The notes under the pieces are model-generated. The model searched no databases. It saw only the letters and a list, made by a program, of their open reading frames with translations, and had not been told where the DNA came from. Source: an uncultured Planctomycetia bacterium (GTDB taxonomy: Bacteria > Omnitrophota > Gorgyraeia > Gorgyraeales > Gorgyraeaceae). Taken from it: a stretch of DNA of 64,000 bases. Shown in pieces: positions 1 to 24,000 of this stretch; within the stretch, counting starts at the first letter, position 1, and every line of letters begins with the position of its first letter. Made by a program: the position numbers and the translations under genes. Location of the stretch: contig CAYPYS010000001.1 of NCBI GenBank assembly GCA_964415355.1, positions 283,819 to 347,818 on the forward strand, read 5' to 3'.

Positions 1-3000
1 ACTCAAAATTTTTAAACCATCTATTTCAAAATCTCCTCTAAATATCGAGGTGTATACCTCTTCAAGCCAATGGAAAAGCTCTGTCTTGCCGCTCAAGAAA
101 CTAAAAAGTCTTATATTTAAATCGAGCCTGTCACGCTTTGGCTGCCAGTCCTTTTCTTTTTCTCCAAAAATAGGGCCTGCGGCAGTTAAATAAAAATCCT
201 TTACGAACTCCACCATCACCTTTTCTTCAAAGCTGAGTGCATCATACTGCTTTTTAAGGTAACGTGTTATCATATTACCGAATTGAAAGTTAAACTGATT
301 ACTTCTGTCTCCCCATAAATCCTCTGCTGACTGTTCTTCCCCCCATAAAATAAAAGTACCCCATGCATTTTCATCAGCACCAAGAGCCAGGTCTTCAGTT
401 AAAACATCATGCTGTTTTAAATCTTGTCCTGAATCCTGAGGTATACGGTATATCGTGCGGGCTATTAAAGAGATTGCGCTCTTTAGAGGCACGCTTAAGA
501 AAAACCCAACTGTGCGCCAGCCAATCAAGGCAGAGTAAATAGAGACAAGGACTGTGGTAATTCTTACAAGATAAGGGCTTACCTGCGTGTTTGCTACTAT
601 CTTGTTCAAGGCCCTGGCCCATTTAAATCCCTGTCCTTTAACAAGAGAACCCACAGCAACTAATATGCTGCCTCCTGTAGAGGTCTCGTCATCCAGCACA
701 AAGAGCCAGGCATTTTTTAGATTGCCTATCCTTAAAGGCTTGTTCTTGCTGATAAAAATCTCATCTTTCTCGATATAAACATCCTTATCAGTTGTCCTGA
801 CCTTGGGCAAATATCCTGTATATATAGGAATGCTTTCAGGAGATATGATATATCTCCTGGAGATCATGATTCTTAGAATATTAGCTGCTTCCTTGACATA
901 GTGAAGCGCCCCTTTATCAGGCGCGAGCAGGACCAAAGGATTTTCTCTCAGCGTATCTATGATCTTATTGCTGCGCCTGAGCATTTCCGGCATATCCATG
1001 ACCTCGCCCTTCTTAGGCAATGATGCCCCGATCTCTTCAGCAAACACCTCAAAGAATAAATATTCAGCCAGCTGCACAAAACCATTGATATTTATCAGGC
1101 GTATATTTTTATATCTACTCAAGGACACAAGGCCGCGCTTTTTGCCCTGGCCTAGCCAAACCCAACCGCTCTCACGGCCATAATGCACATTGTTCGCAAA
1201 ATGAAGGTCTGTCAGCCAATCTAAAAGTAAAAGCATTGCCCCGGCTGAGATCACATCACCTTTTTTATCAGCCCTGTCCTTGCGCGCAAGGCCTTCATAG
1301 GTATCTATAAGCGAAATATGATTTACCCCAGCCCTGCGTAATTTGACAAGCGCCAGCAGCAGATAAATGACATTCTGGCTGTTCTCCGTAGAATGTATAA
1401 TAGCCACATCATCGCCCTTTTGTATATCCAAAGGAAGCGCAATATCATAATGAGCATTGCCATGATCGATGATCTGTATCATGCCATCCCTTGCCTTGAG
1501 ATTTTCAGCCACTCTCTGGGATTCAGCCTCAAACCTTGGTTGAATGCACAGTATCTTCTCTAGCGGGCCTCTAGGCATACTCTTGCTTCGACTTCTAGAA
1601 ATAGAAACTTCTTCTGTCCATTCTGTGCCATCGCTGCACATAACTTCATCGCCAGCATATCTCATCAACTCCAACAATATCTCATCGTCTTCCAGGATTT
1701 TTCCTGCCTCATCTCTTCGCGGCCTCCAGCTTAATAGTTTCAAAACAGCCTTCTTGGCTTTATATAATTTTGAGCCATCTGCGAGCAGGAGCACGGCAAG
1801 CACATTGTCATTCGAAGTCAACCCATCTTCAGAAACCAAACTTCGCTCAAGCTCTGCTTCAGACCCTCTAAGCTCTCGATAATTACTGATATTAATATTA
1901 GGCTCCCTATCCGCAAACTGCCCATACGTATACCTTAAGTTTACACTCTTACGTTGTTGAAGTGTAAACTCAAGGAGAAAAACGACGATTGCAACTGCTA
2001 GGACCATTACGATTACACACATAACAACTAGCATAACAATCCTGCCATCAGACCAGCCAATCATTTCGTTAAAGGCTAAATATAATGCTGCGTTATTGAA
2101 AAAGCCTGTATTACGGCTAGTTGGAGATACTTGTATATCGTATTTATGACTTCTGCCTTTTATGTCGCTAAGAGAACTAGCGCTACCGCAATGATCTAAA
2201 TGTTGTTTAACAGGAGCACTTATAGTAGCACTCTTTAACATAGCTAATACAATGACTACGGCTCTTTCTTCAGGAAAAACTCTTGCATAGACTCTTCTGC
2301 TACCTCTTTGTATTTCATAGAGACCGTGCTGCCTGCCATATTTCTTTGGAAATTTACTGTTAGAAGGATTAGCCAGTAAAGTCTCTAGCTTTCTTTGATA
2401 TTGCCTGGCTGAATAGTCACACTTATCAGTAACAGAATATACTTTAAATGTTAGCTTTTGCCTTTTTGAGCCTTGCTGTCGTAGAGATGAATTAATATAT
2501 TTCTCTCTAACTGGCCTATTTCCTCTGTTTCGTTTATTAGACTCTGGAGGCGGATCCTTGATTACATCTGATACCACTACATAAGGTTCTGGTTCACTCC
2601 TGCCTGTTTCGCCTATTGCTTCTTCCTCTTTTTTTCGAATATCAATCAAAAACTTTATAGGACGCCATATTGGCCAGGTTAATATCTTTAAGGCTTTAAA
2701 TATAAAAACAAATATTTCCCCTAAAACCTCAAAGACCCTCTGCATAAAATCCCATACTGGCAAGATAATATTTCCATATATCCATTTAATCCCTGAAAAA
2801 ACAGGAAGTATAAAATTGAAAAACAGACTAACAATGGCCAATGCACCAATAGCCATAACCATCATAATATTCTGTCCTGGTGTAAGGTTTTCTATTCTTG
2901 CTTCTATAAAGCCGATAACTAATACGACAAGTAAAGCTGTTACTATTGGAATTCCTATAACATCCCCTAATAGCGTATCAAGAAATCTATGCCTTACTTT

Positions 3001-6000
3001 ATTCCTTTCAACACACATCTTAATACCCTGCACTATCATCATTGAAACTAAGATAATAAGAGGCACGGCCCATATCAAATTATCAGCATTAAGGGGTGGG
3101 GCGTGGCGCCAGATGGCGTAGAGCAGGGCAGTTAATCCTACGATGAAATGCGAAGAAACCCTCCCAGAAGGATTTCTTATTTTGTCTATTATTCTTTCTG
3201 TATTTACCCTAGTACAACCCAAGCCCACGAGTACATCGTCGCTTAGATCGGGCAAGGCTATCTTAGCCTCTTTAAGCATGGCACGGCCTTCCTCGATAGC
3301 CCAGCCTCTAACATCAAGCGGCTCCATCAGATTCCATGCTATAGCAATATATACTTCTCCTGCGTCAGCCAAATCCAATCTACTTCTTGCAACGTCTAAC
3401 AGGAAACCTTCTTCTATATGAGGCTCTAGTTTGGTATTTAGTATTTTTTCTAGTATCGCCTTTCCTTTTTTAGCAGCCTCTTCTAATCTATTCTTGGTCT
3501 CAGCCTCTCTGAAAGTCATTAAAACCAATTTTGTCCTGGGCAATTTCGCTTCAGACCTAATCTCTTCAATTCGCTGCGGAGGCATAACCACCCCTGTCTC
3601 ACATTCTTCTATTATCTGACCTGTCTTCAGGCTATCTGTTAAAGAAGCATGCCTGGTATCTAAATAATAAAATTTTTGCCTTCGGCTGTCATACCTTATG
3701 CTTTCGTGGACCCTGGCATTTAAAAGATCTCGCGTCAACCAGTTTTCGCCATACATAGCAGCTACATCAGCAATAACAGCGCCTTGCGGCACGCGTATAA
3801 CCCTAAAATATCGCTTGCCTCTGTATTCCTTGCTTACAAAAATATAGACCAAATCCTCTATGCCTCCTAAAACTGCGTCAAAGTCCTTAACTGGATCGCC
3901 TGTAAACTCAATATCATCAGGAGTATATTTAAGATTCTTTTCAGTATTTTTCACTGTCCTCTCAACCTTATAAACCCAATGCGCAAGCGGCCCATGATAT
4001 CTATAGTTAAAATACTGTCTCTTGGAAGGAAATATCTGAAATTCAACGGCGATCTCTCTGGATCCAAATTCAACCCACTTACCTGCGTTGAAAGCCCTGT
4101 ATCCTACATCTGCCTCTCTTTTTTCTTCAGTTTGGCCCTTAATATCCTTTTGCCATATATCATAAATAGCCTCTATTGCTCTCCTGTAATCTTCTCCGTT
4201 TTTTGTAACAATCATTATGCCGCCCAAGTCTTTTAATGAAGCTACATCAGGATATTTTTCCTTTTCTATGACCTTTCTATAAGTCCGATACACGCCCTTG
4301 CATCTTCCTAAAACTTCGACTGATTTTATTACTGATTTTTTCAATATAGACTCGACATGCTTGCGCAACTTCTCGACCTCTTCCTTAGCCTCCTCATAAG
4401 TCATGCCAAGAATTTCTTCTATCTCTGCTATTGTCCGCCTATAAGCATCGGCATCATAAAGCTTAAACCATTCATCCTCTAGCGCCTCTGAAACTATATC
4501 AAGGCCGCGGCGTTCCGCAAGCGGAATATACAACTCATGCAATTCAGCCTTTAAATATTCTATTTCTTCTCTAGCATTAGCGTGCCTTATAGTACTTAAT
4601 CTATCCGCAAACGTAATAAGAAGGACCTCAAAGCGCCCTGCTAATTTCAATATCATATTCATCTGGTTATAGGCGTCCCATACGCTAGAATCAAGCAGCT
4701 TATAAGGAAGGGCTCGTATCATAGCATGCCTCTTAGTCATGAGGATCAATTCCTTGATCTGAGCAGGATCCAGAATATTTTCTTCTTTCAAAGAAGATCT
4801 AAGAACAGCGCTATCCAACGGGTGCAATAGACATGTGGCTATAAATAGATCAGGAACTTTTTCTGACCCAAAAGCATATTTATAAAATCTGATAAAGTTA
4901 CGGGTTACTTCTAATACGTGTTCTAAATAAAGCTCTCCGGAAGGATGGATCAGGTCTTTATATTTTTCCTCTGCGAAATCATAGATCTTTTCTATCAACG
5001 AGGTGTCTATAGAGTTTGACAGGATAAAATCTAAAACAGCTTTTTCTCTGCCATTAAACTTTTCTGATTTTTTGACTTCAGGAAAATCTTCCAATAAACT
5101 TGCAAAAACGCCTACTAGATAATCTTCTTTGTTCAAATCAAGATATCGCGCATACACAGATAAATATTGCATTGCTACTGAATGTTCTTCGCCAAATCTA
5201 GGGCTGGGGTTACAGATGCTTTGAACGAGCAGCTGCGGATCAAAATAGCCAGCTCTCATCATATATTGCCTGACAGACAACATTCTTAGAGCATCTCTTA
5301 ATCTACTGAAAGCTACTTTTAAATCATCATTATCTTTTATAGCATCGGCTATGTCTTTTTCCAGCTCAGCATTGAAAATATGCTCTAATAATGCACTATG
5401 CTCTGTTGCTTCTTCTGGGTTATATCTTGCCAGACTGGATATTTCCGGGAATTCTGCCAAACTAAAAAAGACCCTCTCTCTACCTAGAAGCACGGCCACT
5501 GTAAGACATGCTTCTAATGTTTCTGTCCTGACTTTAACCAAGGCCCTGAACTCTTTCAGTCTATCAAGGCGCCTATCTATCGCTACATCAACCATAGTCT
5601 CTGTAACACTCTTTATATCCAAGATATCAGGTGTTATACCTAAAACAGAAAATGCCCTTTCTAGCTCTTCCGTCATAGCCTTTTTTATATATGGCTTTCT
5701 AACGGACAAAGGACTGGATAAGATACGACTAATTTCTCCCCTATGACTTCTTAGGTTATCTTTTCCAGAGACAAATCCATAGTTTATAAAAAGAGTCTCG
5801 AGGCTTTTGGGATCCATAAGTCCCTCTATCAAGCCCATGACATAGTGTAAAGGCCTCTTGTCTCCGAATAATCCAACCTTATCAAATATCTCAACCCTTG
5901 CCTTAGCGTCTATTTGAGAAAGGACAGATGCGATCAAGACAGAAACCCAGCGCTCTCTAAGCTCTGCAACCCGCGGATTCGTTAAAGGAATGTCTTTGTA

Positions 6001-9000
6001 TCCAAAACCAAAAAGTCTCATAATTCTTTTGCATCTTATCTCAATGTTATTGACGAACTTTTTGTCCTTATTCCTTATATCCTGTAAATAGAGAAAAGCC
6101 TTTTCGAATAACAACACCTCTGTCAGGCTTTCGGGAATATTAAATACGTATGCATCTTTTTCAGAACTTAATATATATTCCTCATATTCATTTACTATCT
6201 TCTCTTGAATCTGGAATCGTTCTTCTGTCCTTACAGATTTACTGTTTCCAAAGCCTGCAAGCTTCCTGATCCCCTTTCTTACTTCATGCCTTACCTCTTT
6301 AATCAAATCTCCATATGCCGAAGCCAGTTCTCTATCATTGAATCTTAAGGCATATGCCATAGCAAAATACCCTATCCATAAAAGCGTCACTGCCCCGTCT
6401 AGATTCTCAAGCTGGCTCTCTACGCTCAAAACATCCAACGTCCTAAGACTATGGAGCCTATCAACTAGTTTTAGCATTACGGCTTTGTTTTCATCCTTAT
6501 GCCTTGCCGCTCTATATAATGAACTGTAGAATAAATGCTTTTTTTGATTACCATGTTCGTCTCTTTCGATTGTAAGCAACTCAACATACCTAGCCACCCT
6601 GTCTCCAAAGTTATGCTTTATCTCTCTGACTGTAGCTAAACCATCTTCGGGCAGATCATGTAACAGAGCAGCCATTATAATATCGATATCCAGTTGACCA
6701 AGCACCATAACTATCTCTGCTACAGCCGCAGGATGGCCTATCTCAGGAGTCCCTCTTTTCCTAAAACTGACCTTTTTTACCTGCGCAAGCCTTATAGCTA
6801 AAAAATCATATGCCTTTTTTATTAGCCGCATGTCTCTTTTGTCCACTTTTTCATCAAGAAGTTCTTCGATTCTCTTAAAATAACCCAGTTCAACGCTCTT
6901 GGTTCTAATATAACGTGTTAACAAGATCCCAGAAAAGAACATAATCAAAATCATCATCGAAAATACAACAAGATTTACTATCAGGTTTGGGTCATTTAAA
7001 AATCTATATAAAAGTAACGCGAGGGCCTCCATGGCGATTATTTTTAGCGTCAATAACTGAAACCCTGTAACGATAAGACTTGTAAAACTCGGAATAAATA
7101 GAGGATCCCATCCCCTGGTCTCGATAGTATTCTTTACTAATAAATATATGACCCTCTTTTGTATAAAACTGTCGTATAAATATCTCTTCTCGAGGAACGG
7201 CTTCATTTTTTCCGGGCAAATACGATAAAAGATATGTTCCGAACAATAATCTTCAAACCTAGCTATATTGATATGCTCTTCGTATTTTTCTGTAGCAATG
7301 GCTCGCGGTTTATGTAGCAAGAAACCCAAGATAACCAAAATAACTGGATCAAATACTGTAAGGATAAAGAATAATGCCATTATTAGATATGCAGACATAG
7401 TAACCGGGACCCGTTCTGCGATCAGCGATGTGATCACAAGCAGAAACATTAAAAATAAAGCGACAAAAATAAGATCTCTTTCTCGAAGTCCAGTTAAAAA
7501 TGACCACTGCATTGTTTCTTCTTTTTCACGAACAGGATATACATTCCTGATAAAGCTGGCAGCTATGGCAGTGAAAAATAAAATTAATAATAATAAACCC
7601 AGACCATATGAAAAAATAAAAGAAAACTTGCCAAAGCGAAGAACAAAAATAGACCCTACAAGGATTATAAGTAAGGGCGCTGAAATCCAATATATTATCC
7701 TGCCTATCCTGAGCATAGGGTAACTATTCGCTATAACATGCAAAATAATAGATAGGGCAAAGAACATTGGAATAAATAAGTCTACAGAAGGTTGCAATAA
7801 CCCCAATAATGCCGTGCTGACAATAGTAATAAATAGTCTTCCGTCAGAAAATGCAAAGGTGAGTTTTTCTTTGAAAGAATTTTCTTTTGAGCGAGGAATA
7901 TGCAAGAGGTGCCAGAAAATACGCGCACATAAATATGCTAGAATTACTGGCGGGCCATGCGCAAAGGGTATACCAAATGCTCGGCTTAGCAAGAGAGCCA
8001 GGCCGCAGACAAATATTGCTTCTTCAACAAGGGCTGGCGCAAGCGCCTGGCCTATAAAGCCATGCCCGATCTTATCATATAACCACTGCAGCCATGGAAA
8101 ACGCCCACCAAGAACCTCCAGATCTCCTTGTAGAGATTCTAATTCTTCTTCATATTCAATAAGGTCATCGACCAGGTCCAATGATATAGCAGCCAACAGG
8201 TCGCTAAAAGCCTGCGTTTTGTCATGTTTGTTATCTAAAAATGAAGACAAGGATGCCCCTCCGCTAGATAGCTCAGCCTTAGCTTCATCAGCTCTTGTTA
8301 TACGCGCCTTGGCATTACTAAGATCACCAAAAAGACGTCTTTTTGCTGGGTCTGAATCAGAAGCTTCTACTAAGTCCGCTAATTCATTGCGAGCTCTTTT
8401 TTTATCTTGAACAGCCTCTTTTCTGAACTGGCTTATTTCTTTCGATAATTTTCCCCTGGTGCTTCTTACTTTTCTTCTAGCCTTTGCTATTTCTTTCTGC
8501 TTCTTCCTTATTTGTTTTTGAAGTTCATCATCCTCAGTCATCCCGAATTCAGCAAACATACTCATCTGCCCAGGAGAAACCCTGGTTTTTCCGCGTCCCC
8601 TCCACGCCATCGCAAACATGAAAGCTGTAAAAATCACCATCACAAAATCAGCTCTAAGTATACTTTCAACATTGTTGAAAGTATACTTAAGCAGGGCGAA
8701 GATGATAAAAGGTAGTGCTAGTGAATATAGAGTGATATACTTTTTCTGCACAGCCTCCGATACTCCCTGGCTCTTATAAGTTTCCCAATTAGATGCAGAC
8801 CAGATCTCAATAACCCCACCCACCCCTGCTATAACGACTTTGCTTAATCTCTTTATGCCGGCCTCTTTGCATAATCTACTACCTAATGGTAAACATCCAT
8901 TACTATTAAACCCTTTCCCTCCTTTATCAGGAATAACTCTGATATAAGACAAGCTCTTATCTTCTCCTATCAACAGCTTAACTTTTCCATCTGAAGATCG

Positions 9001-12000
9001 ATCTAATTTATTCCGAATAGCTGCCGGAATTAGAACTCTATATCTAAAATCTAAACGCTTTTTATAATTACTCATAAATACAGAGCCTATGAAAATAGTA
9101 TTATTTGCTAAAGTATAAGGAGAGACAAGTTTTGCAGTCTTGGCAGCGACCACAAGAGCATTAGACGGAGGGAAAAACCAAAGTAGCAAGAAAAAGAAAA
9201 GGCCTACGCATAATCCTATTATAATTAGAACAATGCCTGCTCTTATGCCCATTCTAGTGATATTACTTGCTGCGCCCCGTGCCTCTCCTACTTTGCGAGG
9301 ATCTAAATGCTTTTCATCGATCAATGCTATTTCTTTTTTATCATAACCTCGTCTCTCTAACCAGTTCTTTACAATATGATGTATGCCTCTATAAATTATA
9401 TATAAGACAAGGCCTGCAATAGTTATTATAAGCAAGTTATATAAACTTAACCCTCTCCCCATACTGTAGGTCAGGTTTAAACCTGACCTACAGTATGGGG
9501 AGAGGGTAAGGGTGAGGGGAAAGAAATATAATAGGATTGAGACGAAGTCATTTTTATTTCTTTTTCTTGGAGGGCTTCTGCCAGCATGAAACTTTCGTTC
9601 TTTAGTTCTTAGGGGTGTTTGTCCATGAAATTCTCTCAATGTATCTGCATCCTTTTCGTTTGCAACTGCGATAGTTACTGAGTCTCCTTGCCTAGATCCA
9701 CCATTATTACCTTGATCACTGCCAAAAGAAGTATCTTTCCATGAATCCCTAAGGCGTGGGTCAGGATTATCATTTCCTCTTTTTCTTCTTCTTTTCTTAA
9801 AGCTTTTCTCTATGGCTGGCAGGAATAATTGTTCTGCAAGGCTTAGGGTCAGCTGGGCTTCCAGGTTATCTATTATCTGAAAGCCACCTTCTAAGTCAGT
9901 GATCCAGCCGCTTATAGTAGTATTAGTATCTGTATTATCTCTAGTTATAACATCATCCATTATAGACTCACTTGTAACTAGGCCTTCATCTAGCCTTAAG
10001 TCAGAGCGGGTTACCTCTATAGCGCCCTGGATATCACTTACAGCATCCTGGATCCTCTTCTTGGGAGAATCTAGGTTTTCTACAGCCCTGGTCCTTTTCC
10101 TTATGCTTTCACCTAACTCATCAGGGTCTTTGGTCTCTGATATCTCTGGTAACTCAGGGGATGAGATATCGATATCTATTTTTTTAGGTTTTCCTCCATT
10201 AGTAGGCTCTACTTTTACAGTTACTGTGCCTCCTAATGCCTTTTCTCTTTCCAGCTGGTTTAGCTCCTCAAGGTCTTTCCAGAGTTCATCTATCACTCTT
10301 TCTTCATGAAGCCTTGCTGCCTCTTTAAGGCTCTTTAAGCGTGCTCTTATATCTTTTTGGACCCTTAAGGCTTTTTGTTCAAGGCTGCGTGCTTCTATGA
10401 TGATCCTTTGGGACCTTTCTAAGAGTAAGTCATCGTTTTTATTGAGGCTCGCTATTATTACCTCCACCATTCTTTCTATGTCTTTAACCATACCTTGAGT
10501 AGCCTTATATTCTTCTTCTAAAGAGGCCTTGGCCTGATCTAATCGTTCTTTATTATGGTCATGTTGAGTTTGTGCTTCTAGCCTTAACTCTTCTACCTGG
10601 AGCAGGTGTCCTTTCTTCTTTTCCTCCACTAGCTCTTCCAAGAGCGTTATTCTCTTTACCAGTTCTTTTAAAGCTCCTTGTGAGCTTTTTTGGGTCTTGT
10701 GTAAGAGCGCGGTAGCTCTTCTTCCTATCTCATTGAGGTTCTCCCTTGCTTCTAAGGCTTTTTGCATGACTTCTTCACTTGGGTTATCTAGATCGATCTC
10801 TTCGAGGGCTAAAGTGGCAGTTTTATGCTCTTTTTGTGAGAGAGTAGCTAACTCTAGAGATTCATTATTGGTCCTTTCTACTAATGTCTCTACGCCTCTA
10901 GTGAGAGAAGCTAATTCATCTTTTACGTGGGAATCTGCTTCAGTTAATATGTCATTCATCTCTAGTAATAAGGTATCTATATCGCTGTAGCTTGTTACTA
11001 CCTCATCTGTCAGGCTAAAGACATTGGCTAACCTTAAGGAGAGTTTTTCTATGGCTTCTTTATAAGTAGGTCCTACATTGCTTAAGGCTTTTTCACTCTC
11101 TCTTCCTATATCCAGTGCAGTTTTTAAGAGTTCGCTGAGCCTTGAGGCTATTTTCTCGATATCTTTCTGGTAACTTGAGTGGTCTATGGGTTCAGTTTGT
11201 ATGATCTCCCTTAGAGAAGAGAGTATGGTAACCAGGTTCTCTTCTGCGCCTACTACAATAGTTGATGCCCTCTCGAGTAATGCGTCATTGATCTTTAATG
11301 AATCTAAGGATATAGAGAAGTTAAGGCTTTTCTCTATCCTGGAGAGCCTTTCATCTACTTTATGGATCAGTCTTGTCAGTTCATTTGATAGGTTCTCTAG
11401 CTCTATCTCCCTAGCTTCTAATTCTCCCTCTCTTTGTAGCCTAAGGCTTCTTATCTTTATGCTTAATTCATTTATTTCTCTTATTATATCAGTCAAGGCC
11501 TCTTGTTTTTCTTTTAGGCTTGATACCCAGTTTTGTATCTTCCCTAAAGTCTCTTCTGTCTCTTGATTCATGTTCTCTGTCTCTAGTTGAGCTTTTTCAA
11601 GGAGCGTCTCGACCTCTCTTATGATCGATAGGATCTCTATTTCTATTTCATCTAATTCTTTGGTTACGCTTGTTATATAACTCTCCAGTTCTAATGATGA
11701 CTCTTCTATTTTCTGGGAGTCTTTATTTAAGGAGCGGGTGAGGGTACGCAGTTTTTCAGCATCTATCCCTTTACTCATTATCTCTATCATGTTTTGGTGA
11801 GACTCTTCTATGGCTTCTTTTTTTTCTTTTAGTTTTTTTCTATATTCAGAGACTTGCATTAAAGTTATGATGAATCTAAATAGGTTGGCAAGGTGTCTTG
11901 ATAAGAAGCTTGAAAGAGCTTTTAGCATACTAGCTAGAGTCCTGGTGAAAGTTCTTTCGCTTTTTATTACACTCTTACTAAATAAAACAGGTAGTTCAGT

Positions 12001-15000
12001 GAGAAGAGAAGAAAGAGTCATGAATAAGTACCAGACTTTTAGCATAGCTGGAGTTATGCCCTTTGTATTTACTAACACTGCTGTTAGAGTAAAAAAGATG
12101 ACTAGATTTACAGTCATGTGATAGGCTTTATCTCGCTTGTTCTCTATATCAGGGTTTAAGAAGAAGCTATATATAAAAGGTATCCTTGAAAGAAGTATCC
12201 AGGCTGTTATGAGTGAAAGCGCGAATAAGCCTGCGATAGCTCCTTCTAATCCTCCGAATGTTATGTAGCCTAGGTATGCAGAACCAGATACTGAGCCAAG
12301 GAATGTGGTTATAGCTCCTAATACCTTTGCTATAGTGGGTATCCTTCTACGCAGGAGGTGCCAATTAATGCTATAGTCTCTACTTGAGTCTTCACTAAAG
12401 GCTTCTTGTGTATTAAATAACTCTTTTAGGTGATTTTGTAACTTTTTTGCCTCTTCTAATATCTCAGGTGCTAATTCACCTCGTCTTTTGTGCTTATATA
12501 GCTCTAGTAAGGCTTTGAGCTTACTATCTATTAGAGATATCCTCTCTCCCTCCTCTTTATTTGCAGTCTCAGATGCTTTTTCTAAGAGATTATTTAATGC
12601 ACCTATACTGCGTGTTAGGTCTATACCTTTAGGAGACGAAAGGCCTTCTTTTATGAGGCTAAGGAGCTTTTTTGCCTCAGAGATATACTTTTCTGCTTCA
12701 GAGGTGGTTTTGTCTGAGGCCTGGGTAGTATCTGGCTGGGATTGGGTATTTTTTACAGGCTGAGCAGCTTCTCTTTCTTCGGCTATGTCATTCTGAGCTT
12801 CAAGAGGAAGTGCTTGAGGCTCTGCACTCTCTCTTTTGGGGAGATGGATGGGTGAGGGGCTGGTTTTTCTCCTTACCTTCCACATGCGGATCTCGATGAA
12901 GCCTCTGAGCTCTTCTAAGAGTTCTTTTGCTTGAGGCTCATCTAGCTTTCTTAGCTTTTCTAGTAAAGCTTCTCTCTCAGATTCATCTGCTACTTGGTGG
13001 TAATATAGGGCGAGCATGGCTTTCATATCGATATATCTGGAATCTATATCATCTAACAATGTCTGTATAATATTGACTTTTTCTTTTCGCTTAGATAATT
13101 TTGATATCTCAAGAAGCTTCTCTGTCGTGTTGCTAAAAATAGATTCTGGTGTTCCGCGTAGAAAACGGGAATCCTCTGACCACAGGACTATATTGCGTTT
13201 AAACTTTGAAACAACAAGTACAATATCAACTGCTATATCAAGAACCTTGTTTAGATTGCCGGGATCATTCCAACTTGTGAGTAACTTGCTGCGCATGGCA
13301 AACTCATCATATCTCAGATGAAAACAAGCTATGCTCATTGTAACCGGGTCTTCTTCGCATACAAAATTACTGAAATCTGCCACACTTGGCTTCTTAACGT
13401 GAGTTTGTCTGATGCGATCACGCATCTCATTTGCCAGTTTTACAGCTTCTCTATCAAATTCATCTGCATTGTCAGGCGCATTAATGTCCTCTTCCAAAAG
13501 CCTGCTGAAAACTAACGGGAGCGTCCTTCTTGCCAGCTCCAGCGCGCCGCGTATCTCAGCGCGCATGCGAGAATCTTCCGGATCCACTGCAATAGCAATG
13601 GTGACATTGTCGCACGGATATGCAAGCAGCCACAAGACAACTTGCTCTTCGTTAACCCCTATCCTAGCAATTGTCTCTGAAAAAATATCGCGGATAACAC
13701 TTAATATTATCCTGTCATCATTGAGCAACTTGTTAAAACGCCCCATCATCCTATCCACGTCAACATCAACAAAAATAATGTCCTGCTCGTTATCTATCCC
13801 GTCTTGTAATAATTTTGTTAATGCAACCCGGCCATACCTTAACTCGTCTTTTTGCTCTTCTTCTATTACCGTAATCTTTTTAGCAGCTACACCTGTGGGC
13901 AGTGCTAGGTTGAAGCTAGAATCCATATCAACTATCGGTTCCTCCGCGACCTCTATCATCACCTCTTCACCCTGATTCCTGGTTTCGTATTCAGCAGCTG
14001 CCTGCTCAGCCATTGCGAGGATTTTTTCGCGCTGCGCCGCAGGTACAACAAGCCGCAATGGACGAATAGTCAAATCTTCAACTATTCTTGTCTCAGGCAC
14101 AGTCTTTTCTAATACAGGTACATGATCGACATCCTGCGCTTTTTGATAGACCAGCCACACTGTCCTGTCGCCTGATATTTTATCTTTATATTGTAAAATA
14201 TCTTCGTCTCCTATGGCGCTACTCATTGTTCGAACCGTCTGCTCTCTTTCGTCTGCATTATAACTAACATCTCCTCCTTTTCCGTAACCAACAACTAGCG
14301 TACCGCCAGGCTTTAATATCTCGGCTGCTTTCTCAATAATCTTTATTTTCTTATTATGATCTACAAGACCGGAAGACAGCACTTTTCGCATAAGAACAGC
14401 ATCGACATCAGTAAGATCTGAATCAAGAAAATCGCCTTTTATGGCCACATTGGGGCAAAATTCCGGCACATAATTTTTTAAGAGTTCGGTCTCACTAACT
14501 CCTGGTTCATAAACCGTGACATTCGCGCCTTTTAGATCCGCAAGGAAAATAAATATCATGTCATAACCCGCTCCGACTTCTACAATATCCATCCCAGGCT
14601 TTACATCTAACTTATCAATAGCGCTAAGATAATCAGGGACTATATCAGAAAATTGGGCAACAAGGCGAGTTAGTTTACCCACAATATCTTTCGGTAATAT
14701 CGATTCAGCGTCAAAAATATTGATCAGCTCAGTGAAATAATTCTTTACATCTTGCACAAGTGGCTCGCTTAACTCTAAAAATATATCCTGATCTTCAGAC
14801 ATCATAGAAGTAGTCACATGTAGAAATAAAGCCGGAAGGCTCGGGACAAAACCATGAGTATGCGCCCTTGCCATGACATCATAAGATAGCATGCGAGTAG
14901 CATTAACAGAAGAAAGCGACTCAAGCACTTCCTCCTGGCTATTTTCATCCAGCTGCAAGAAGTCATAGACTTCCATAAGCCTGACCATGATCTCCTGAAA

Positions 15001-18000
15001 AACCATAGGCGCGCTAAGTTCAGCTTCTCTCGCGCTCAATAAAGCTCCTCTCTCGATTTTTGCACTTTGTAGGCCTAAAAGAGATATGGGAAAAGCTTGA
15101 ACAGTAATATTGTCATCTCCGCTTACCTTCAAAGTCTCAAGCGCGGCAACGATTTTATCCTCTCCTATCTTAGCACCCTCGCTTTTCCTGCGCGCTCTAT
15201 TTAGCTGCTCCAGGATCACCTTTGCCCGCTCCTCGTCTCCTGTGATTATGTCAAAAAGCCCGTGTTCGTCATAATGGCCAAAGTGATCTACCATCATAAG
15301 AAACCCATACTCCAACGTTCCTGCAGACTTAATATATTTATCTTTATCAGAAGGAAGTAAAAACCCATTAGGGTGAGAATGCGCAAAAAACCATATTAAA
15401 TAATGGCTATTACTCTTTATCATAATGCTAGGAGCTTTATCAGGTTCGCCTTTTGTAATAATCCATACCCCGCAATAGTTACGCAATCCTATTTCAAATG
15501 GCGCATCAATATCACTGATATCAGATAACAATTTATCTATAGCGTGAATCTGTTCTGTCATTTCTGACGCAGACATATTCAGTTGCCAATCCAAGACAAA
15601 AGAAGTTCCTGCTAAAATATTTTCATTAAGAATATGTCCTCTTATATCATTAATACTTCTAGCATAACCACTCAATACCTTACGCGCCTTTTCTAAGTGT
15701 CCTTTTCTTGCCAATATCTCAAAGATCGCAAAATCCCTCTGAAGGCGCCTCTGGTATTCTTCTAGTGATGCGCCTGGACCTATTCCCAGTGCCTCTTTTT
15801 CCAATATCCCAGCTATATCAGAATACGGATTAAGCACAAGTGCCTCAACAATATCTTCGACATCTATGCCGCTTATAACAATACCACGCTCAGATCCGCC
15901 TCTGAAAATTCCATGATTACCTCTTGCTAGGTGCCGTACGATCCTTTCCACCTCTTCTCTTTCCTGAGCCAGGATATGTTCTAAAAAATACTTGTATTCG
16001 TTAAGGTAAAGTTCTTTGTAAGAATATCTGTCATCGCTACTCAGCAGATTATCTATTGCCGATAAAATATTGTTTGCCAATTCAAGAATGTTATCCCGAG
16101 CCTCAGACTTTAAAAACCTCTTAAGCGCATCAATTGTCTCTTGAATAATTAACCTATCTGTAGAACTTTCGAGAACTTTAACCAGACTATGAATCCCGTC
16201 TGGATTGTTCGAATAACCAATAGCCCTGATTGCAGAACACTGTATGCGACAGTCTGAAGTTTCTAGGAAAGGCAGCACTCTATTTAAATCAGTCGGTTCT
16301 CCAAAAAACGATATATAACGCAAAGCCATAGAGCGAATATATTTATCATCATGCCCCAGCAAATCGGCCACTAACGGAGTTGCCTCTTTTATCTTAAGAG
16401 ACCTAAGCACAGAAATAGCGACGTATAACTGATCAACTGTAGCTTCTTTTGGTTTCTTTAAAATCTCGATCAAGGCATCTATGATCTCCCTCGACCCAAT
16501 GCTCCCAAGAACATGCGCAGCATCGGATCTTTTGTCTATTTTGCCTTTTAATAGATCTTCTAAGATTTGAGCATGCGTATTAAGTATCTCTAGGCTATTT
16601 TCAATAGGAAGAGTTACGCTTTCGTTTTCAGGGCTTTCAGGCATGTTTATTCCAAGCATATGACGCAATACTTCCTCTATCCTAGGATCATTAAAACAGC
16701 ATGACAGAAGAGCGATGTTTTCCTGTAGCACCCTGGTCTTTTCTCTTTTTTCTTCGGTTTGCCCAGATAACTGCCAGTAAAACTTGATCAAGGGTTCAAC
16801 AAAAGCAGCATGGTTAATATCCATATTCATAAAGGATTCAGCAAAAGCAGCACGGTTAATATTCTCCATACCAGTTAAGATTTTAATAAGTTCTTCTATG
16901 CGCCCTTCATCTTGAGGGACCTTCAGCTGACTGATAAACCAATTAATACTTCTCTCGTCACACTGCCTCGCCAATGCCACAGCTGCCGGCAAGGCAATAT
17001 CAATATCTTTTTTGAGCATTAGATCATGCAAACGTGTGCTGTCTACAACCATTGCTGTCTCTAATCCAGCATCTATTGGCATAAGAATATCATCCGCGAT
17101 TTCCTTTCCGAATACTGCCTTCATTTTCTGAATAAGGGCTGTTGGAAGATCTACTGCGCCGCGATAAAGCCGCGCAATCTCTTCTGCGACATTACCTACT
17201 ACCAGCGCAACGCCTTCTCTTGTGTCATCCTCGCGATTACTGTCATTCCTGTGTTCTTCATTGTCATTCTCGCAAAAGCGGGAATCCACTTTCCTCGCCA
17301 CGATATCGAGGAAAGGCGTAATAGCTCCAGTAACAGGATCCACCCACGCCCCGAGCATACCCATTGCCCAACGGGTGATGAGTCCAATAAAGCCATTGCG
17401 AGAAACCTCAGAAGATGAAACAGTATCTATAACAGTAAAAACTCCTACATTATGTGAAGCATTATCATCTATAATATCATCTTCTCGTTTAATAATAATA
17501 CCTTGTGAAGCCATTTCTTTTGCTATTTCTTCGACAATATCCACTCTTTTGAAATCTTCATCCGGCGTATTTGAAACCATTATAACAAGCTGGCCACCGT
17601 GCTCTAGGATTTCAAACGCCTTTCGGACCATCTTTTTCTGTACATCCAAAGGCACGACTCCATGAGGCCGAATCGGACTTATGATCCTCGACATAACCAC
17701 CATATTATATTTATGTCTAAAGCTGTACTTGGTCACATCAGCGCATTCATATGTAATACCAAGACCCGATCTCTTAGCAATATCACTTTTTAGACTTTTT
17801 ACACTTTCTGGGTCTATTTCAATACCTAAATATTGAGCTCCCATTGAATGAGCTACTATACCAGGAAGACTCACGACTCCAGGACCAAACTCTACTATTT
17901 TATCTCCTGGCACAATACCTAACTTCTTAAATAAACCGAAAATAAAACTCTCTCTAATGACAGGTGATAATTTTAAGTTTTCAGAAGCCGAGGAAGTGCC

Positions 18001-21000
18001 GAGCCTTACGGGCTCGACCAATCTCCTTTTAATCTCCCCAGCTAGCTCCTCCAGCGCCTCTTGCCGCTCGGTATTGAACTGTTCGAGAATCTCACGAGGA
18101 ATACTGTTCGAGCGAGGCGACTCCAAATCTGCTTCTCGACCTTGCTCGAAGAGGATTTGGAGTCGACGAGTCGAGAACCTATTCTGAATCTCTTCTATCT
18201 CACCCTGCAGCCACTTTGCAAATTGCCTAATCGGCTGCGGAACCGCTTCTATGCTAATTCTATCCCATGCTTCTCCATTCTTCTCGACAACCCTATAGAG
18301 AAATCCATTTTTACCAAAAACATCCTGATTCCTAAAATCAGTGTCTATATTTGCAACTAGCTCAAGTTTAATTCCTCTCGCATCTGCCTCCTGACTCAAA
18401 ATCCATTCTGCGGATTTTCCATAATATCCTGTCCTTGTATCGCTCGTTATAAAAATAGTCCCGCCAAGAGTTATGAAATCAAGTATTAAATTGATTATCG
18501 ATGTTTTTTCCTCTCTTGTAAAATGATAGTGGATGTCGGTGAATACATTTAACATTGAGATATGGCAAAATGAACTCTCTGACCACTGCTCTGATTCCGC
18601 AACCTCAAATATGCCTTTGCCTTTACCGTAAATCTTCACATCCAAATGTCTGTCTAAATAACTCTCTATGTGTTCTTTTAAGTCTTTTGTATTATCTATT
18701 ACGTCTTTGTCGGGATCCACAGCATGCACTTCAAGTCCTCTTATTGCATCGAATATTGGCAACAAGGAAGCGCCATATCCTATATGCAGCGACTTATCTC
18801 CTATTTGAAGCGTTCTGTCTAAAATTCTAAGAGATTCTTCACTTGCAGTGCTTGGTTTACGATCTGGTAATTTCTCCAGCACATCTAAAAATTCTCTCAA
18901 ACCTTCGCTATCCCCAACCACTAGCTCCCCTATCACCATTTCATATAACCCTGCCAGAGCAGCTGCTGTAATCTGCTTTCTGTTCACTATTGCATCATTT
19001 ATTAGTTCGATGACGCTACTTTGGTAATCTTCACCAGAATCTGCCTTTTCAGCCTCCATCATAATCAACTCAGCGTTTCCACCAAGAGACATCTCAAAAA
19101 ATGTGCCTTTGATAAGATCGCTAACAAGAGGTGTTGCAACCGGACGCCAAGACGGATCCAAAGTGATTTCAAGCCCAGAATGCTTCAATACCTCTACAAA
19201 ATCATTGAGCTCGTCATAAATATGCTCTGTAAGTACAACAAACTTGCCCGCAACGCCAAGTAACAGGCTCGTTGAACGTGCAATATCAGCTGTGAACATA
19301 TGAGGCTCTTTTGGCATGCTATCATTTGGCGGCATAGGCCCGATCATATATATCTCGTCAAATCTAATCTTATCTCCAACCAAACCAGCAAGCTCCTCAA
19401 CCTTCATTCTTATTGATATGACATCTTCCAAAACACCTACAGAAGGAGCAAATACAAACTTTCCTTGTTCTGGTTCAACCCCAATAATAAGCCAGCTGGA
19501 ACTATCTTTTCTTTTTATGTCCCTTATATTCAATAATTCTTTCCCTTGGCCTGCTCCGATACAAAGCGCGCATTTAATATATTGTCCTTCCTCAATTTTT
19601 CTACGCAAATCTTCAGATATAAACCCATTCACATCATTTGAAGATAAGGATCCCAAAAGTTTTACAACTTCCTGTGCAGTTTTGCCTCGACTGCTGTCAC
19701 CGTAATCTGCCTCTATGGCTGCCACGAGAGCCTCGAACTCGTGCTCACCTTCATACTTAGTCACACTGTTATCTGTGATTCGATAAACAATTCTGCGCCC
19801 TGATTTTACCTGATCACCATAAAATATAGATTCTGCAATAGCTCTTAAATCTCCAACATCTGACAAAGCGTCCTCTAGCATAACTGTATTAATTGTTACC
19901 TTCTCCCAACTAGAGGTTTTTAACAAAATAAAGAATCCGCTCAGTAAGAATTTTTCTGCAAGTATATCAACACCCTTACTAAATCCTTCAGCTGTAGAAT
20001 CACTGAATAAATAAACAGGCCTGCCTTTAAATTCGTTATCTTCTGGCATAGATTTTAGCAAACCCTGCGCATCCTTAATGAGGGGGTCTTCGCTAGTAGC
20101 GATCTTCGCCTCACTAGCACCTGCTTCAATCGGAACACCAGAAGGTACATTAATCTCAGTCTCTATCTGTACATCTGCAGCCTGCTGTATGAGCTCAAGA
20201 GCACCCATTGTATCTTGTTGCATCTTCTCAGCTCGCAATCGCAGAAGTCGCGCAACAGCATCCTCGGTGTCCTGCATAAAAATCAGAGATATACTAAGAT
20301 CTGTTTTTCTGATAAGATCTATAACATCCTCTTTTTCACACCATTCTGGATCATGTACTCTAAGTCCTTGATCCTGTAATACTTCTACAAATCTATCCAG
20401 AGCTTCATCCCACCATTTTTCTGTCAACAGTGTAAATTGACCTGTTTCAGATAGCAATCGTGCAATTGCTTCTGCAATTTCAGGTTTAAACATATGCTTT
20501 TGCGTGGTAGCTTCGTCTGGCGGCCAAGGACCAATCATATAAACTTCGTCAAATTTAATTCTATTCGTAACTAAGTCTGCAAATACTTCAAGGTTTAATT
20601 GACATGATACTATATCTTCAGGCATATCCCCGCTGATAAAAGTAAAACTCCTCTTAAAAATAGCTTGGTCTGGCTCAAGGCCAATAATAAACCATTTCTG
20701 GGCATCCTGATTGTTTTTCTTTAATTCTTTTAAATTTAACAATTCCTGACCTGAGCCAACGCCTATACAAAGAGCTAACTTGACATCTTCACCTTGCTCT
20801 ATAGCCTTTCGCAGATCTTCGGAAATATTGCCCTTCACCTTTTCCTCAGGCAATGTGGTAAGAAACTCCAGAAACGCATGCGCATAACCTCTATTTGCAG
20901 TCGTCTTCGTTGTATTCGATTTCGACAATACATCATCTGCAGGCACAAGTAAGCTCACCGCGCCATCATCGGCTACGGCCAAAGCTAACTCTGCCTGAGC

Positions 21001-24000
21001 CTCATCGCGCGTAACACCAGGAAAGTCTATTTCGAACTGGACCATGTCCTGGCCGTCTATAATTTCATTGCTCGCCCTGATCTCGCCATTCATTTTATGC
21101 AGTGATCTCTTTACAAATGGCAATGCAATGCCATGATTAAATTCAGGCCTTTTGTGGTCCAAGACAAACAACTGTTCCAGGTCTCCTTCTATCTTTCCAG
21201 GATTTAAGATAGTAAGACGACTATAAACTTTACCATCTCCTGGTTCCACTCTAGAAAGCCTTAGAGTTACTTTTCTTGATGTCTCTGGTATTGTAGATTT
21301 ATTGCTAATGATTGCATTAAAACCGTTCGAAACAAGACGTTCGATAATTAGATGGAGTAGCTGCAGATGTCCTGAGATCAAAGAAATATCTTCTCCTATG
21401 ATAATCTCAACAGGAGCGTCTTCCCACTTTGTCTCTAGGGCTATCTCTCCTCTCTCGATCTTGCCTAAGTAATCTATTAAATCTATAATTTCAATGTCAT
21501 GTAAAAAGCTCTCTTTCATAGAAGCTCTTATAACTTGGATATTTACTATCCATCGAGAAATTATATTGCGACATTTCTCGCTTGCTTCTTTCTGTGAGAC
21601 ATCTGATACAATAATAATCTGCAATGCTCTCCTTAGTTCTTCTTCTATATCATCTAGAATTTGTATAAAATCTTCTGCAAGCCCGTTAAGCTCAGCAATA
21701 GTTATTCCATCTCTATCCGACAGATGATCTTTGAATTCTCCTTCTAGTTTTTCCCAGTAAATACGTTGTAAATTTTCAATGCTTCCTGTTAAATCTAAAG
21801 TTGTATAGTCCTGTTGCCATTCTTCAAACTTACTAATTACAAGCTGCGCCAGATTTGCAAAAGCCAAAGGCCCGCCATGCCCCATTATAGCAACAGCTAT
21901 CTCCAGATCATCCCAGTGATAAAGAGTCTCTTCTCCCAATGCTGCCACATCTCTTTGCAACCGAATCAAATACATACCATCCTTGAATTCATATTTAAAG
22001 ACAGGTTCTCTAAGAGCTATTTTTAAATCACGATCTTGTGAAGACCCAAAGTTGCTGATTAGAATACTCCCCTGTCCCTGAAGCGTCTCTGCCATGGCAT
22101 TTAACATAGAACGATATACCGTCTCGGTTTCCATGAGACCTCCTTTATTGATGAGCTTATTGGCATATGTACTGTCAAATAGCCCTGAGGAGATTATCAG
22201 ATCCACGCTTCCTGGCTTGACCAGATCTTCATAACGAGCCAATTCCTGCACCACATCTCCGATAACAGTAATATTAGAGCCTCTGTTGGTTTCCCATCTG
22301 GGATTTACTACTATGACCTGTGAATCAGGAAATCTTTCAGCTACAGTTATAGGGATATTAGCTGTATCCGGCCCTACAAACATTATGGTCTTACCGTTAA
22401 GGTCTGTAATACCTAATACCTTATTTAAATACCTGCTTTCAATAATCGGCCAGGAACTTGATAAACTATCGATAGCAATAGAATGAAGGTTGTCATCTGG
22501 CAGGAATAACGACTTCAAATCTATCTGCTGGCCTTCTTTTACTTCAGCTCTTGACTTCACAAGCTGCAGGCCAGCTGCAAGAGTATAAAGGACATGTTGC
22601 TGTCGCTTCTCTGACTCAGGCACGCCGTTTGTGAGTAGAAAACGTATCTTGCTAAGTATGTTTTCGCCTACTCTCTTTACTAATCCTGGAAGTGCGCCTT
22701 TTTTTGCATCAAAGATAGCTATATCTTTTCCATCTGTTTTCGCAAAAGCGAGCTGTGTTTCTTGAGATAAATCATCTAAATCAACGAGCATCTTAGGTCC
22801 ATGCGCAGTATCGTCTTCGGAGATTGCTTTGTCGCCTGCGGCTCCTCGCAATAACACATCCTCTCCTGCAATGACACCTGGCCACGTCACCTGGATTTGC
22901 GCACAGGGAATACCAGTATCGAAAACTTCTTCCAGAAGCAGAGGTAAAATATCTTCTATTTCGCCTTCTGCCTTATCCACCCGGATACCTTTTGTATCCT
23001 GCAATCCATTTTCAAAAACATGCAGCCAGTATTTTTTTGCCTCGGGTAGATCACCGATCCCTTTTCTGGCAATAAGTCCGACAAACGGAATTAACGCATC
23101 TATCCCAAACTGCCTATACGCATCTCTTGAGTCCTCTATATAAGCAAACAAAGGCTCTATCGACTCTAACGGCAAGTCAATATATCTATTAACGACTTCT
23201 TCAAGCATAGCCTTTTTAAATTGCTGCAGCTGTTCGCCTCTGGTGTTTCCATAGTCCTCTGGTTTGCCTGGAAATAAGGATATTTTTTCTTTTTCTTTGC
23301 GCCATAACATAATACACAAAGGAAACAATATTTCCGTCAATGCATCTTTAAACGAATCTGGCAGGGCTTCTTCGCCGACTATGTCGAATAAGCGACTAAA
23401 CTCTTCGATGCGAGTGCGCGTGTAAGTTATCTTCCCAGGTTTAGCTTTAAGGTCTAATTCAGCCATGTACTCATACCAGCCTCCTGTCCGCGTTTTATCA
23501 ATAGTAAAACCATAATGCTCTAGAACCTGCTGCGCTTCGTGTATTGCAGCTTGTGATTCTATTCTTAAACCAGCGCCGAAAAGCTCTGCCTGGCACCCTT
23601 CAAATTCAGCCCCTATTTCTTTAAGCGCACTAAGAATTTCTATTAAAGAAAGCCTTATATCGTCTGCCTGCCTTGAAAAACCTACCGCAATTGCCCATTC
23701 ATTCGACTGAAAAAAATGCCCCATGTAAACATACTGTCGTCCTTGTATCTCTATTTTTGGGATGCAAAGTCCTAGGCAATTCTTCACTTCATCTGTAGAT
23801 ACTAAACTCAATGTGCCTGAATCATGGGGGACCAATACGCTATACCCGGCATTAACTTCTAATCCACTCGCTGTATGAAGAATAGAAACTATCTCTACTG
23901 ATGCTTGTCCGCGAACTTGAGCATGGGATAATAAGATAAACTCTGTTTCCGGAAGGAGCCTTTGTAGTTCTGAAGTCAATCCAGGATTATTTAAAGTAAC

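Follow-up and report, generated by a model that had tools for sequence, protein, structure and literature searches.

A perfect 58-bp palindrome lies inside the single giant open reading frame (ORF) that occupies the 64,000-nucleotide stretch analysed here (hereafter the window), and its sequence indicates that it is the hairpin of a BoxC/PIT/TM_ECO-type triplex repeat, a variant of this kind and not a typical member. What is new, and surprising for the BoxC/PIT/TM_ECO family, is the in-frame location together with the 58-bp perfect stem. On balance, and with no great confidence, we favour the explanation that a normally intergenic BoxC-type repeat has been tolerated in frame, that its hairpin was perfected by template switching during replication and that the element probably has no dedicated function.

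Results

The family is defined by the published TM_ECO pattern, 5'-CCCTCNCCC-N3-6-GGGNGAGGG-N3-GGGNGAGGG-3', for which Holder et al. (2015; PMC4666352), who cite the earlier work of Bergler, Bachellier, Hoyne & Maher, reported 3,610 occurrences in 262 proteobacterial genomes and 23 copies in E. coli MG1655, every one of them intergenic. On the + strand of the window, positions 9451-9519 read CCCTCTCCCC-(ATACTGTAGGTCAGGTTTAAACCTGACCTACAGTAT)-GGGGAGAGGG-TAA-GGGTGAGGGG, in which ATACTGTAGGTCAGGTTTAAACCTGACCTACAGTAT is a 36-nt palindrome (Table 1). When loop 1 of the published pattern was widened to 31-45 nt, the window contained a single exact match, at 9451-9518 of the + strand, with 0.00 expected; the outer 10 bp of each palindrome arm are therefore the stem of the motif. 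The three blocks CCCTCNCCC, GGGNGAGGG and GGGNGAGGG are present consecutively, and loop 2 is exactly 3 nt long. The part with the two G-blocks (21-23 nt) is unique in the window, where 0.00 occurrences are expected even with 2-3 mismatches, and over 23 nt it differs from the E. coli type A only in loop 2, which is TAA instead of TTA (the E. coli loop-2 types being TTA and CCG). On these pattern statistics, a chance likeness to BoxC appears to be excluded. By inspection, G.G-C, A.A-T or T.A-T triads are possible between block 3 and block 2 at 10 of 10 positions in the antiparallel orientation; with blocks compatible with canonical purine-motif triads, the window copy can, by prediction, form a triplex, as the E. 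coli type A, which has the same blocks, is described to have done in vitro (PMC4666352).

Copies of the motif were found elsewhere. When the 141-nt neighbourhood was compared by BLAST with plasmid and chromid records, hundreds of short matches fell on the C-rich stretch just upstream of the palindrome. They came from DNA of E. coli, Enterobacter, Klebsiella, Rhizobium and Sinorhizobium that is intergenic or carries no annotation, and several records had more than one match. The matched E. coli locus reads CCCCTCACCCTAACCCTCTCCCC-AGA-GGGGCGAGGGG, and the S. meliloti locus reads CCCCTCACCCTAACCCTCTCCCC-GTTCTGAC-GGGGAGAGGGG and lies between argB and the next gene, about 25 nt beyond the end of argB. 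The segment corresponding to the G-part was found in 5,400 of 5,426 complete E. coli genomes, at a median of 13 places per genome, and the E. coli copy that we inspected is intergenic, between wcaJ and cpsG. An A-rich tail past block 3 and a 'CCCC-AT...AT-GGGG' junction are common to the window copy and other copies. A BLAST match in Persicobacter was to a CCCTTA tandem repeat and is irrelevant.

For a comparison of loop structure, we used 147 distinct copies with the same stem from IMG/VR contigs (loci L010-L102). Loop 1 of these copies is mostly 3-8 nt long, with a maximum of 36 nt, and long loops were present at 14 loci as against at least 120 short-loop loci. The sequence of the hairpin extensions differs from copy to copy; however, 14 of the 16 long loops start and end in 3-7 complementary pairs, often as CCCC-AT...AT-GGGG like the window copy, and for this reason a paired extension of the hairpin is best regarded as a trait of the family. 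In contigs as G/C-rich as these, chance alone makes stop-free stretches long, so that a position inside an ORF carries no information for the IMG/VR copies.

The first-pass annotation of this DNA had placed a perfect palindrome at 9451-9506; we recovered it and found that it is one base longer on each side, with 29-nt arms, no mismatch and no spacer. A simple estimate (64,000 positions x 13 loop sizes x 4^-29) gives an expectation of about 3e-12 such structures by chance. In an exhaustive scan for hairpins with perfect stems and loops of up to 12 nt, this 29-bp stem was followed by one of 17 bp (8655-8689) and then by stems of 12 bp, so that the window has only two perfect-stem outliers, both within 850 nt, and the remaining 63 kb has none. 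Within the window, the 28-nt arm had no second match when up to 3 mismatches were tolerated (shuffles expect 0.00), and the inner 18-nt half had no other copy. The predicted RNA fold of the 171-nt context has an energy of -68.8 kcal/mol (z = -10.5). In 70-nt windows slid along the whole mRNA strand, the palindrome reached -57.5 kcal/mol (mean -11.5, standard deviation 4.4, runner-up -34.1), which makes it the strongest local RNA fold in the 64 kb.

The element had also been described as lying in frame inside a coding sequence, and this proved correct: one frame of the minus strand has no TAA, TAG or TGA across 21,333 codons, whereas each other frame has hundreds of stops. Because this single stop-free frame spans all 64,000 nt, we regard the window as an internal piece of a giant gene. 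Of the six frames of 9450-9520, one is stop-free, and it is the frame of the giant ORF, which reads ...FFPLTL-TLSPYCRSGLNLTYSMGRG-LSLYNLL... across the palindrome. The palindrome had further been placed within a hydrophobic membrane segment, a description that is correct only in part: a hydropathy scan shows that it encodes a polar stretch flanked by the weakly hydrophobic FVSILLYFFPLTLTL and the strongly hydrophobic LSLYNLLIITIAGLVLYII, both of which have basic residues on their outer sides. As a polar peptide between two hydrophobic segments, the palindrome would thus encode a loop and not a membrane segment, and such a loop is likely to be a place where extra residues are tolerated.

The same stretch is the least coding-like part of the ORF. 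The 30-codon window over the element has a codon-usage score of -0.27, the minimum of the ORF (mean 0.35, standard deviation 0.15). Third-position C in this stretch reaches 0.455, the maximum of the ORF (mean 0.147), and by relative synonymous codon usage (RSCU) the stretch ranks 5th lowest among 21,314 twenty-codon windows. Upstream of the element, the coding score stays low for about 40 nt. Translation of the ORF would read the element as a stretch of rare codons (...FFPLTLTLSPYCRSGLNLTYSMGRG...). This codon usage fits a stretch that arrived or arose as non-coding DNA and was kept only since the frame stayed open. The lowest synonymous-codon score of the whole ORF is found at another site, 18064-18177, which is CpG/TCGA-rich and overlaps an imperfect hairpin (18118-18135 with 18148-18165, 89% complementary).

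The host ORF resembles, in its length, hydrophobic segments and domain mosaic, the giant Archaeovorin genes of Omnitrophota, to which it may belong by type. In the giant frame, Pfam matches were obtained to phosphofructokinase (PFK; 1.6e-43) and protein kinase (8.5e-52) domains and also to HATPase_c, HEAT_2, NUDIX, guanylate kinase, GNAT, several methyltransferases, HD_4 with RelA_SpoT, the N-domain of PRPP synthetase and, weakly, MraZ, and a simple hydropathy scan gave about 130 hydrophobic peaks. SecA had no match over 60 kb of the window; the ends of the gene lie beyond it. Archaeovorin has been described as combining many transmembrane regions with domains of the HEAT, HATPase_c, NUDIX and glycolytic kinds, and genes of this type carry a divergent SecA DEAD-like helicase domain and have Omnitrophota hosts (West-Roberts et al. 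2023, bioRxiv 10.1101/2023.11.21.568195). Such proteins reach 147,155 amino acids and are mostly dissimilar to one another, although relatives at family level with about 59% identity exist (Nielsen & Lui 2026, bioRxiv 10.64898/2026.06.07.730766, whose material includes 176 complete Omnitrophota genomes). Palindromes, hairpins and inverted repeats within giant genes are mentioned in neither bioRxiv 10.1101/2023.11.21.568195 nor 10.64898/2026.06.07.730766.

The PFK module is closest, at 51-54% identity, to sequences in metagenome-assembled genomes of Omnitrophica and Auribacterota and in one Logan contig; the best PFK matches to those genomes are the only basis on which we assign the host an affinity to Omnitrophota. 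In that Logan contig (SRR22387811, locus L002, 1976-8766), the closest PFK module (51% identity) is a separate 938-amino-acid gene, followed by a PPDK gene of 1,273 amino acids and then by a gene of more than 3,050 amino acids that fuses GPI, TIM, PGK and enolase; a G/C hairpin (4802-4826) stands directly past the PFK stop codon. This gene set looks like an unfused or partly fused counterpart of the modules of the giant gene. Within the window, 10001-12000 has a strong AT skew (-0.33 on the + strand); the A-rich part of the protein that it corresponds to is rich in Lys and Glu, resembles a coiled coil and lies immediately upstream of the region with the palindrome.

Several further features are located close to the palindrome. 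The second perfect palindrome, TAAGTATACTTTCAACA-T-TGTTGAAAGTATACTTA, shares no sequence with the first; about 5e-5 such structures are expected by chance, and codon usage across it is normal. In the protein it corresponds to the loop that joins two hydrophobic helices. On the minus strand it lies 54-88 nt after a MraZ-like domain, has the T-rich tail GAGCTGATTTT behind it and was called by the terminator scan. The imperfect inverted repeat has perfect cores of 12 and 13 nt and encloses 297 nt that include the first palindrome. It is the only one of such quality in the 64 kb, and among codon-shuffled windows 4 of 66 contained one anywhere. Some rare codons fall in its left arm, which may have arisen from the right one by inverted, templated copying. 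Codon usage is normal inside the repeat, and we saw no direct repeat at its flanks. We rejected an invertible segment bounded by the repeat at 9188 and 9524, since by frame arithmetic inversion would bring a stop-rich antisense frame into the gene. Between the two palindromes, several NCBIfam MraZ models match both halves of the MraZ-like domain collinearly, all with scores below the curated cut-offs; hydrophobic helices lie on either side of the domain. An in-frame Met (9085-9087) aligns with position 2-4 of these models, as if a once-separate gene had been absorbed.

Searches for related sequences and for known signals were largely negative. The neighbouring 1,566 amino acids had no homologue in the protein collections searched, and a scan of JGI metagenomes confirmed by tblastn revealed no related locus. 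A 20-mer of the arm was absent from IMG/VR and from JGI metagenomes; its one match in GTDB genomes was due to chance and lacked a palindrome. No Rfam family exceeded its threshold; the sub-threshold matches were to microRNA precursors and, at 19 bits, to an antizyme frameshift element, which we take as generic hairpin noise. The palindrome was not called by the terminator scan and has no U-tract after the hairpin, the downstream sequence being UUAAGUUUAUAUAAC, so that it does not qualify as an intrinsic (Rho-independent) terminator. Shine-Dalgarno-like motifs precede 1.5% of the 406 in-frame ATGs, compared with 3.2% of all codons; they are thus not enriched, and there is no sign of widespread internal initiation.

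Other known palindromic or hairpin elements were considered and set aside. For a programmed frameshift, an X XXY YYZ slippery site is missing upstream; a bypass would be superfluous in an open frame. The telRL site of N15 is a perfect palindrome too, of 56 bp. A protelomerase target was nevertheless ruled out by the flanks, which are unique, continuous coding sequence. For IS200/IS605 ends, attC sites, CRISPR and retrons, the expected partner features are absent from the window, which is one ORF.

Table 1. Coordinates of the repeat, of neighbouring features and of the host ORF in the window
Feature	Position	Strand	Remarks
Perfect 58-bp palindrome, 29+29, no spacer	9450..9507	no strand	peptide in the minus frame TLSPYCRSGLNLTYSMGRG
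Block 1, C-rich stem CCCTCTCCCC	9451..9460	+	published pattern CCCTCNCCC-N-GGGNGAGGG-N3-GGGNGAGGG found once, 0 expected
Loop 1, 36-nt perfect palindrome ATACTGTAGGTCAGGTTT/AAACCTGACCTACAGTAT (slash at the axis)	9461..9496	no strand	lengthens the hairpin by 18 bp, no unpaired centre
Block 2, G-rich stem GGGGAGAGGG, pairs with block 1	9497..9506	+	same sequence as in TM_ECO type A of E. coli (Table 1 of PMC4666352)
Loop 2, TAA, 3 nt	9507..9509	+	TAA variant also present in other copies
Block 3, third-strand block GGGTGAGGGG, outside the palindrome	9510..9519	+	coding strand of blocks 3+2 reads PLTLTLSP
About 33 codons rich in rare C-ending codons	9453..9551	-	lowest codon-usage score and highest third-position C of the ORF
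Second perfect palindrome, 17+1+17, AT-rich	8655..8689	no strand	760 nt downstream on the mRNA
Imperfect inverted repeat, left arm	9524..9562	no strand	28/39 complementary to 9188-9226; 4 nt from block 3
Imperfect inverted repeat, right arm	9188..9226	no strand	encodes part of hydrophobic helix IIIGLCVGLFFFLL
Diverged MraZ/AbrB-like domain, between the palindromes	8743..9087	-	in-frame Met aligns with the start of the MraZ model
Host ORF, single open frame, off both ends of the window	1..64000	-	mosaic of enzyme domains, about 130 hydrophobic peaks

Discussion

The structure of the window copy suggests how an intergenic-type repeat could have become a perfect palindrome. In the ancestral copy the loop would have been longer and in part paired, comparable to loops of 17-21 nt known from elsewhere; during replication, the nascent strand would have turned round, copied itself along the stem and annealed again at the G-block already in place, leaving a symmetrical loop in the manner of a quasipalindrome 'correction'. 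The inner 36 nt would then most likely be the product of the template switch, as judged from the final sequence. Only the outcome that kept the frame would have survived, in a tolerant loop of the protein. Polymerase stalling at quasipalindromes has been linked to template switching that renders them 'perfect or more perfect' (PMC7202029). PIT/TM elements are described as forming stable triplexes in vitro, where they also block DNA polymerase, and as marking loci with an unusual degree of rearrangement among E. coli strains (PMC4666352). Because both palindromes of the window are paired up to their axis, which selection for an RNA hairpin would not need, an origin at the level of DNA seems the better explanation of their form, and the adjacent inverted repeat and the second palindrome 760 nt away would fit a local hotspot of such events. 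The likely effects of the element would be a fragile, rearrangement-prone site in the DNA and a very stable hairpin in the mRNA that ribosomes have to unwind.

A number of observations weigh against this explanation. Loop 1 is 36 nt long between 10-nt stems (38 nt between 9-nt blocks), compared with the published 3-6 nt, and the hairpin has 18 extra pairs and no loop, whereas all 147 IMG/VR copies have at most 7 extra pairs. The MG1655 copies are always intergenic, but the element lies inside an open frame of 21,333 codons. The window is about 40% GC and Omnitrophota-like, whereas all loci of the IMG/VR copies are at least 57% GC, and Holder et al. reported TM_ECO, under their definition, from Proteobacteria (PMC4666352). 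Neither the rest of the window nor about 50 kb of Omnitrophota-related loci (L002 and L007-L009) yielded a further TM copy. The template-switch step is read solely from the final sequence; no donor or paralogue was found inside the window, neither a target duplication nor an orthologue with an empty site was found, and the flanks (499 amino acids around the site) had no homologue by word-indexed search or by full HMMER against 1.84 billion representatives. Of the earlier suggestions, the one that a miniature palindromic element had been inserted in frame comes nearest, but it is supported only in part. A complete BoxC/PIT/TM_ECO repeat, including TAA-GGGTGAGGGG, does stand in the least coding-like stretch, which agrees with the suggestion, but a target duplication, a second copy or an element-free orthologue that would mark an insertion was not found, and the BoxC/PIT/TM family is not known as a transposable miniature inverted-repeat transposable element (MITE).

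Instead of being tolerated as a late arrival, the element could be a fossil intergenic spacer, if the ORF grew by read-through fusion and swallowed the BoxC-type element and the second palindrome together with the spacers around them. We consider this unlikely, although it has more than one point in its favour. BoxC/TM elements are intergenic where they have been studied; the MraZ-like module begins at an in-frame Met that is aligned to model position 2-4; the second palindrome is terminator-like in its distance of 54-88 nt from the MraZ-like domain and in its T-rich tail; the relative's contig L002 has PFK and glycolytic modules as separate large genes, with a G/C hairpin past the PFK stop; and the drop in coding score takes in about 40 nt on the upstream side of the element. 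However, between the element and the MraZ-like Met lie about 120 codons of normal usage, in which two strong hydrophobic helices are encoded, a mismatch-free 29-bp stem is not expected in an old swallowed spacer, and Shine-Dalgarno motifs are not enriched before in-frame ATGs. With flanks that had no homologues in the searches made, no ancestral gene boundary can be demonstrated. A selected nucleic-acid signal, which might be an RNase III site, a barrier to 3' exonucleases, a pause site for ribosomes or RNA polymerase, an internal terminator with restart at the AUG at 9462-9460, or an operator of the MraZ/AbrB-like domain, appears to us quite improbable. The structure is extreme and perfect, two perfect palindromes within 850 nt bracket one module and none occurs elsewhere in 63 kb, and a helix resembling a signal anchor comes after an in-frame AUG of the right arm. 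An RNA duplex of 27-29 bp is, moreover, long enough for RNase III. On the other side, palindrome 1 lacks a U-tract, Rfam returned only sub-threshold, generic microRNA-hairpin matches, no Shine-Dalgarno motif precedes the AUG at 9462-9460 and none is enriched overall, pairing up to the axis is needless for an RNA function, and no homologues were found that could support the signal by conservation. A single binding protein is unlikely because the two palindromes share no sequence. In addition, PIT/TM elements were reported to act neither as promoters nor as terminators, to leave RNA polymerase unaffected and to be without effect in the in vivo tests described (PMC4666352). For these reasons (the missing U-tract, Rfam family and Shine-Dalgarno enrichment and the inactivity of the family), we find no support for the proposal of the first-pass annotation that the palindrome is a recombination or regulatory site such as an attenuator.

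That all or part of the palindrome, for example the inner 36 nt, is absent from the organism and arose during assembly, amplification or sequencing is very unlikely in our view. Perfect palindromes without a spacer are the classic signature of fold-back chimeras, and the source contig had no counterpart for cross-checking in the public collections searched. A fold-back or inversion chimera is nevertheless contradicted by the flanks, which are unique and continue on the same strand and in the same frame; a simple chimeric inversion, already doubted in the earlier reading of this DNA, can thus be excluded. Likewise, the outer arms and block 3, which lies beyond the palindrome, belong to a bona fide natural repeat, the inner part adds 36 nt and keeps the 21,333-codon frame open, a second, unrelated perfect palindrome is present nearby, and the palindrome has no likeness to common adapters. 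A de novo inverted duplication within ordinary coding sequence, its likeness to BoxC/TM being due to chance, would accord with the other signs of local inverted duplication in the window and with the lack of a second TM copy there. It is scarcely credible all the same, as a 21-23-nt motif of two G-blocks with an exact 3-nt loop, lying partly outside the palindrome, has an expectation of 0.00, and as the 'CCCC-AT...AT-GGGG' junction and the A-rich tail match other copies.

Despite their conservation and abundance, the BoxC/PIT/TM motifs have been assigned no function, and all descriptions place them strictly between genes. An in-frame copy in a distant, A/T-richer lineage would extend the family beyond the taxa in which it has been characterized; it would show that a BoxC-type element is tolerable in coding sequence and that its hairpin can expand, in line with the proposed link between the motif and genome instability. 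It could also serve as a sequence-level marker with which to tell the growth of giant ORFs by local inverted duplication from growth by the uptake of adjacent genes along with the spacers between them. If the element is merely a tolerated passenger, it is a curiosity and implies no new mechanism. Going further, one may speculate, and we regard this as rather doubtful, that BoxC-type elements, as non-B DNA, are template-switch hotspots that write translated loops into the giant gene, and that together with the second palindrome and the Met of the MraZ-like domain the present one perhaps marks a fusion seam. If this were true, embedded hairpins of intergenic type would be readable scars of the growth of Omnitrophota giant genes, and they might also be sites at which the huge mRNA is paused or cut.

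The event that we propose has its closest mechanistic parallel in quasipalindrome template-switch mutations (the Ripley model and the lacZ reporters of the Lovett laboratory, PMC7202029), in which an imperfect repeat is likewise made perfect by copying of the nascent strand. Those mutations are, however, corrections of a few bases in 18-bp quasipalindromes (PMC7202029), whereas about 18 bp per arm would have been made symmetrical here. The Rickettsia palindromic elements (reviewed in PMC10969869) offer a parallel in location, as a palindromic repeat lies in frame in a gene and is translated as an extra peptide, apparently at a structurally tolerant place; they are about 150 bp long and form defined families with many copies per genome and a conserved peptide. 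In contrast to these elements and to intragenic MITEs, the window has one copy of about 70 nt, without sequence relation to them and without clear terminal repeats or a target duplication. G/C-rich palindromic clusters are also known from yeast mitochondria, as the in-frame GC clusters of var1 and the 'byp' elements of Magnusiomyces, the latter of which interrupt the frame and are bypassed by the ribosome. The window copy is similarly a G/C-rich hairpin in a coding region of an A/T-richer genome, but its frame is open and needs no bypass, and no sequence relation exists.

As for the host, the window shares with Archaeovorin genes an ORF of more than 21,333 codons, many hydrophobic segments, the HEAT_2, HATPase_c, NUDIX and glycolytic enzyme domains and PFK kin in Omnitrophica and Auribacterota; it differs in its in-gene palindrome, of a sort that neither of the two preprints mentions, and in that the gene ends, the SecA-like part and the full length lie beyond the window. 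The element itself compares most closely with BoxC/PIT/TM_ECO, with which it has in common the block order CCCTCTCCCC ... GGGGAGAGGG-N3-GGGTGAGGGG, the A-rich tail and the paired 'AT...AT' extension. That family is also associated with local rearrangement. Unlike its relatives, the window copy has a loop 1 of 36 nt that is fully self-complementary, stands in frame within an ORF and is set in surroundings of 40% GC.

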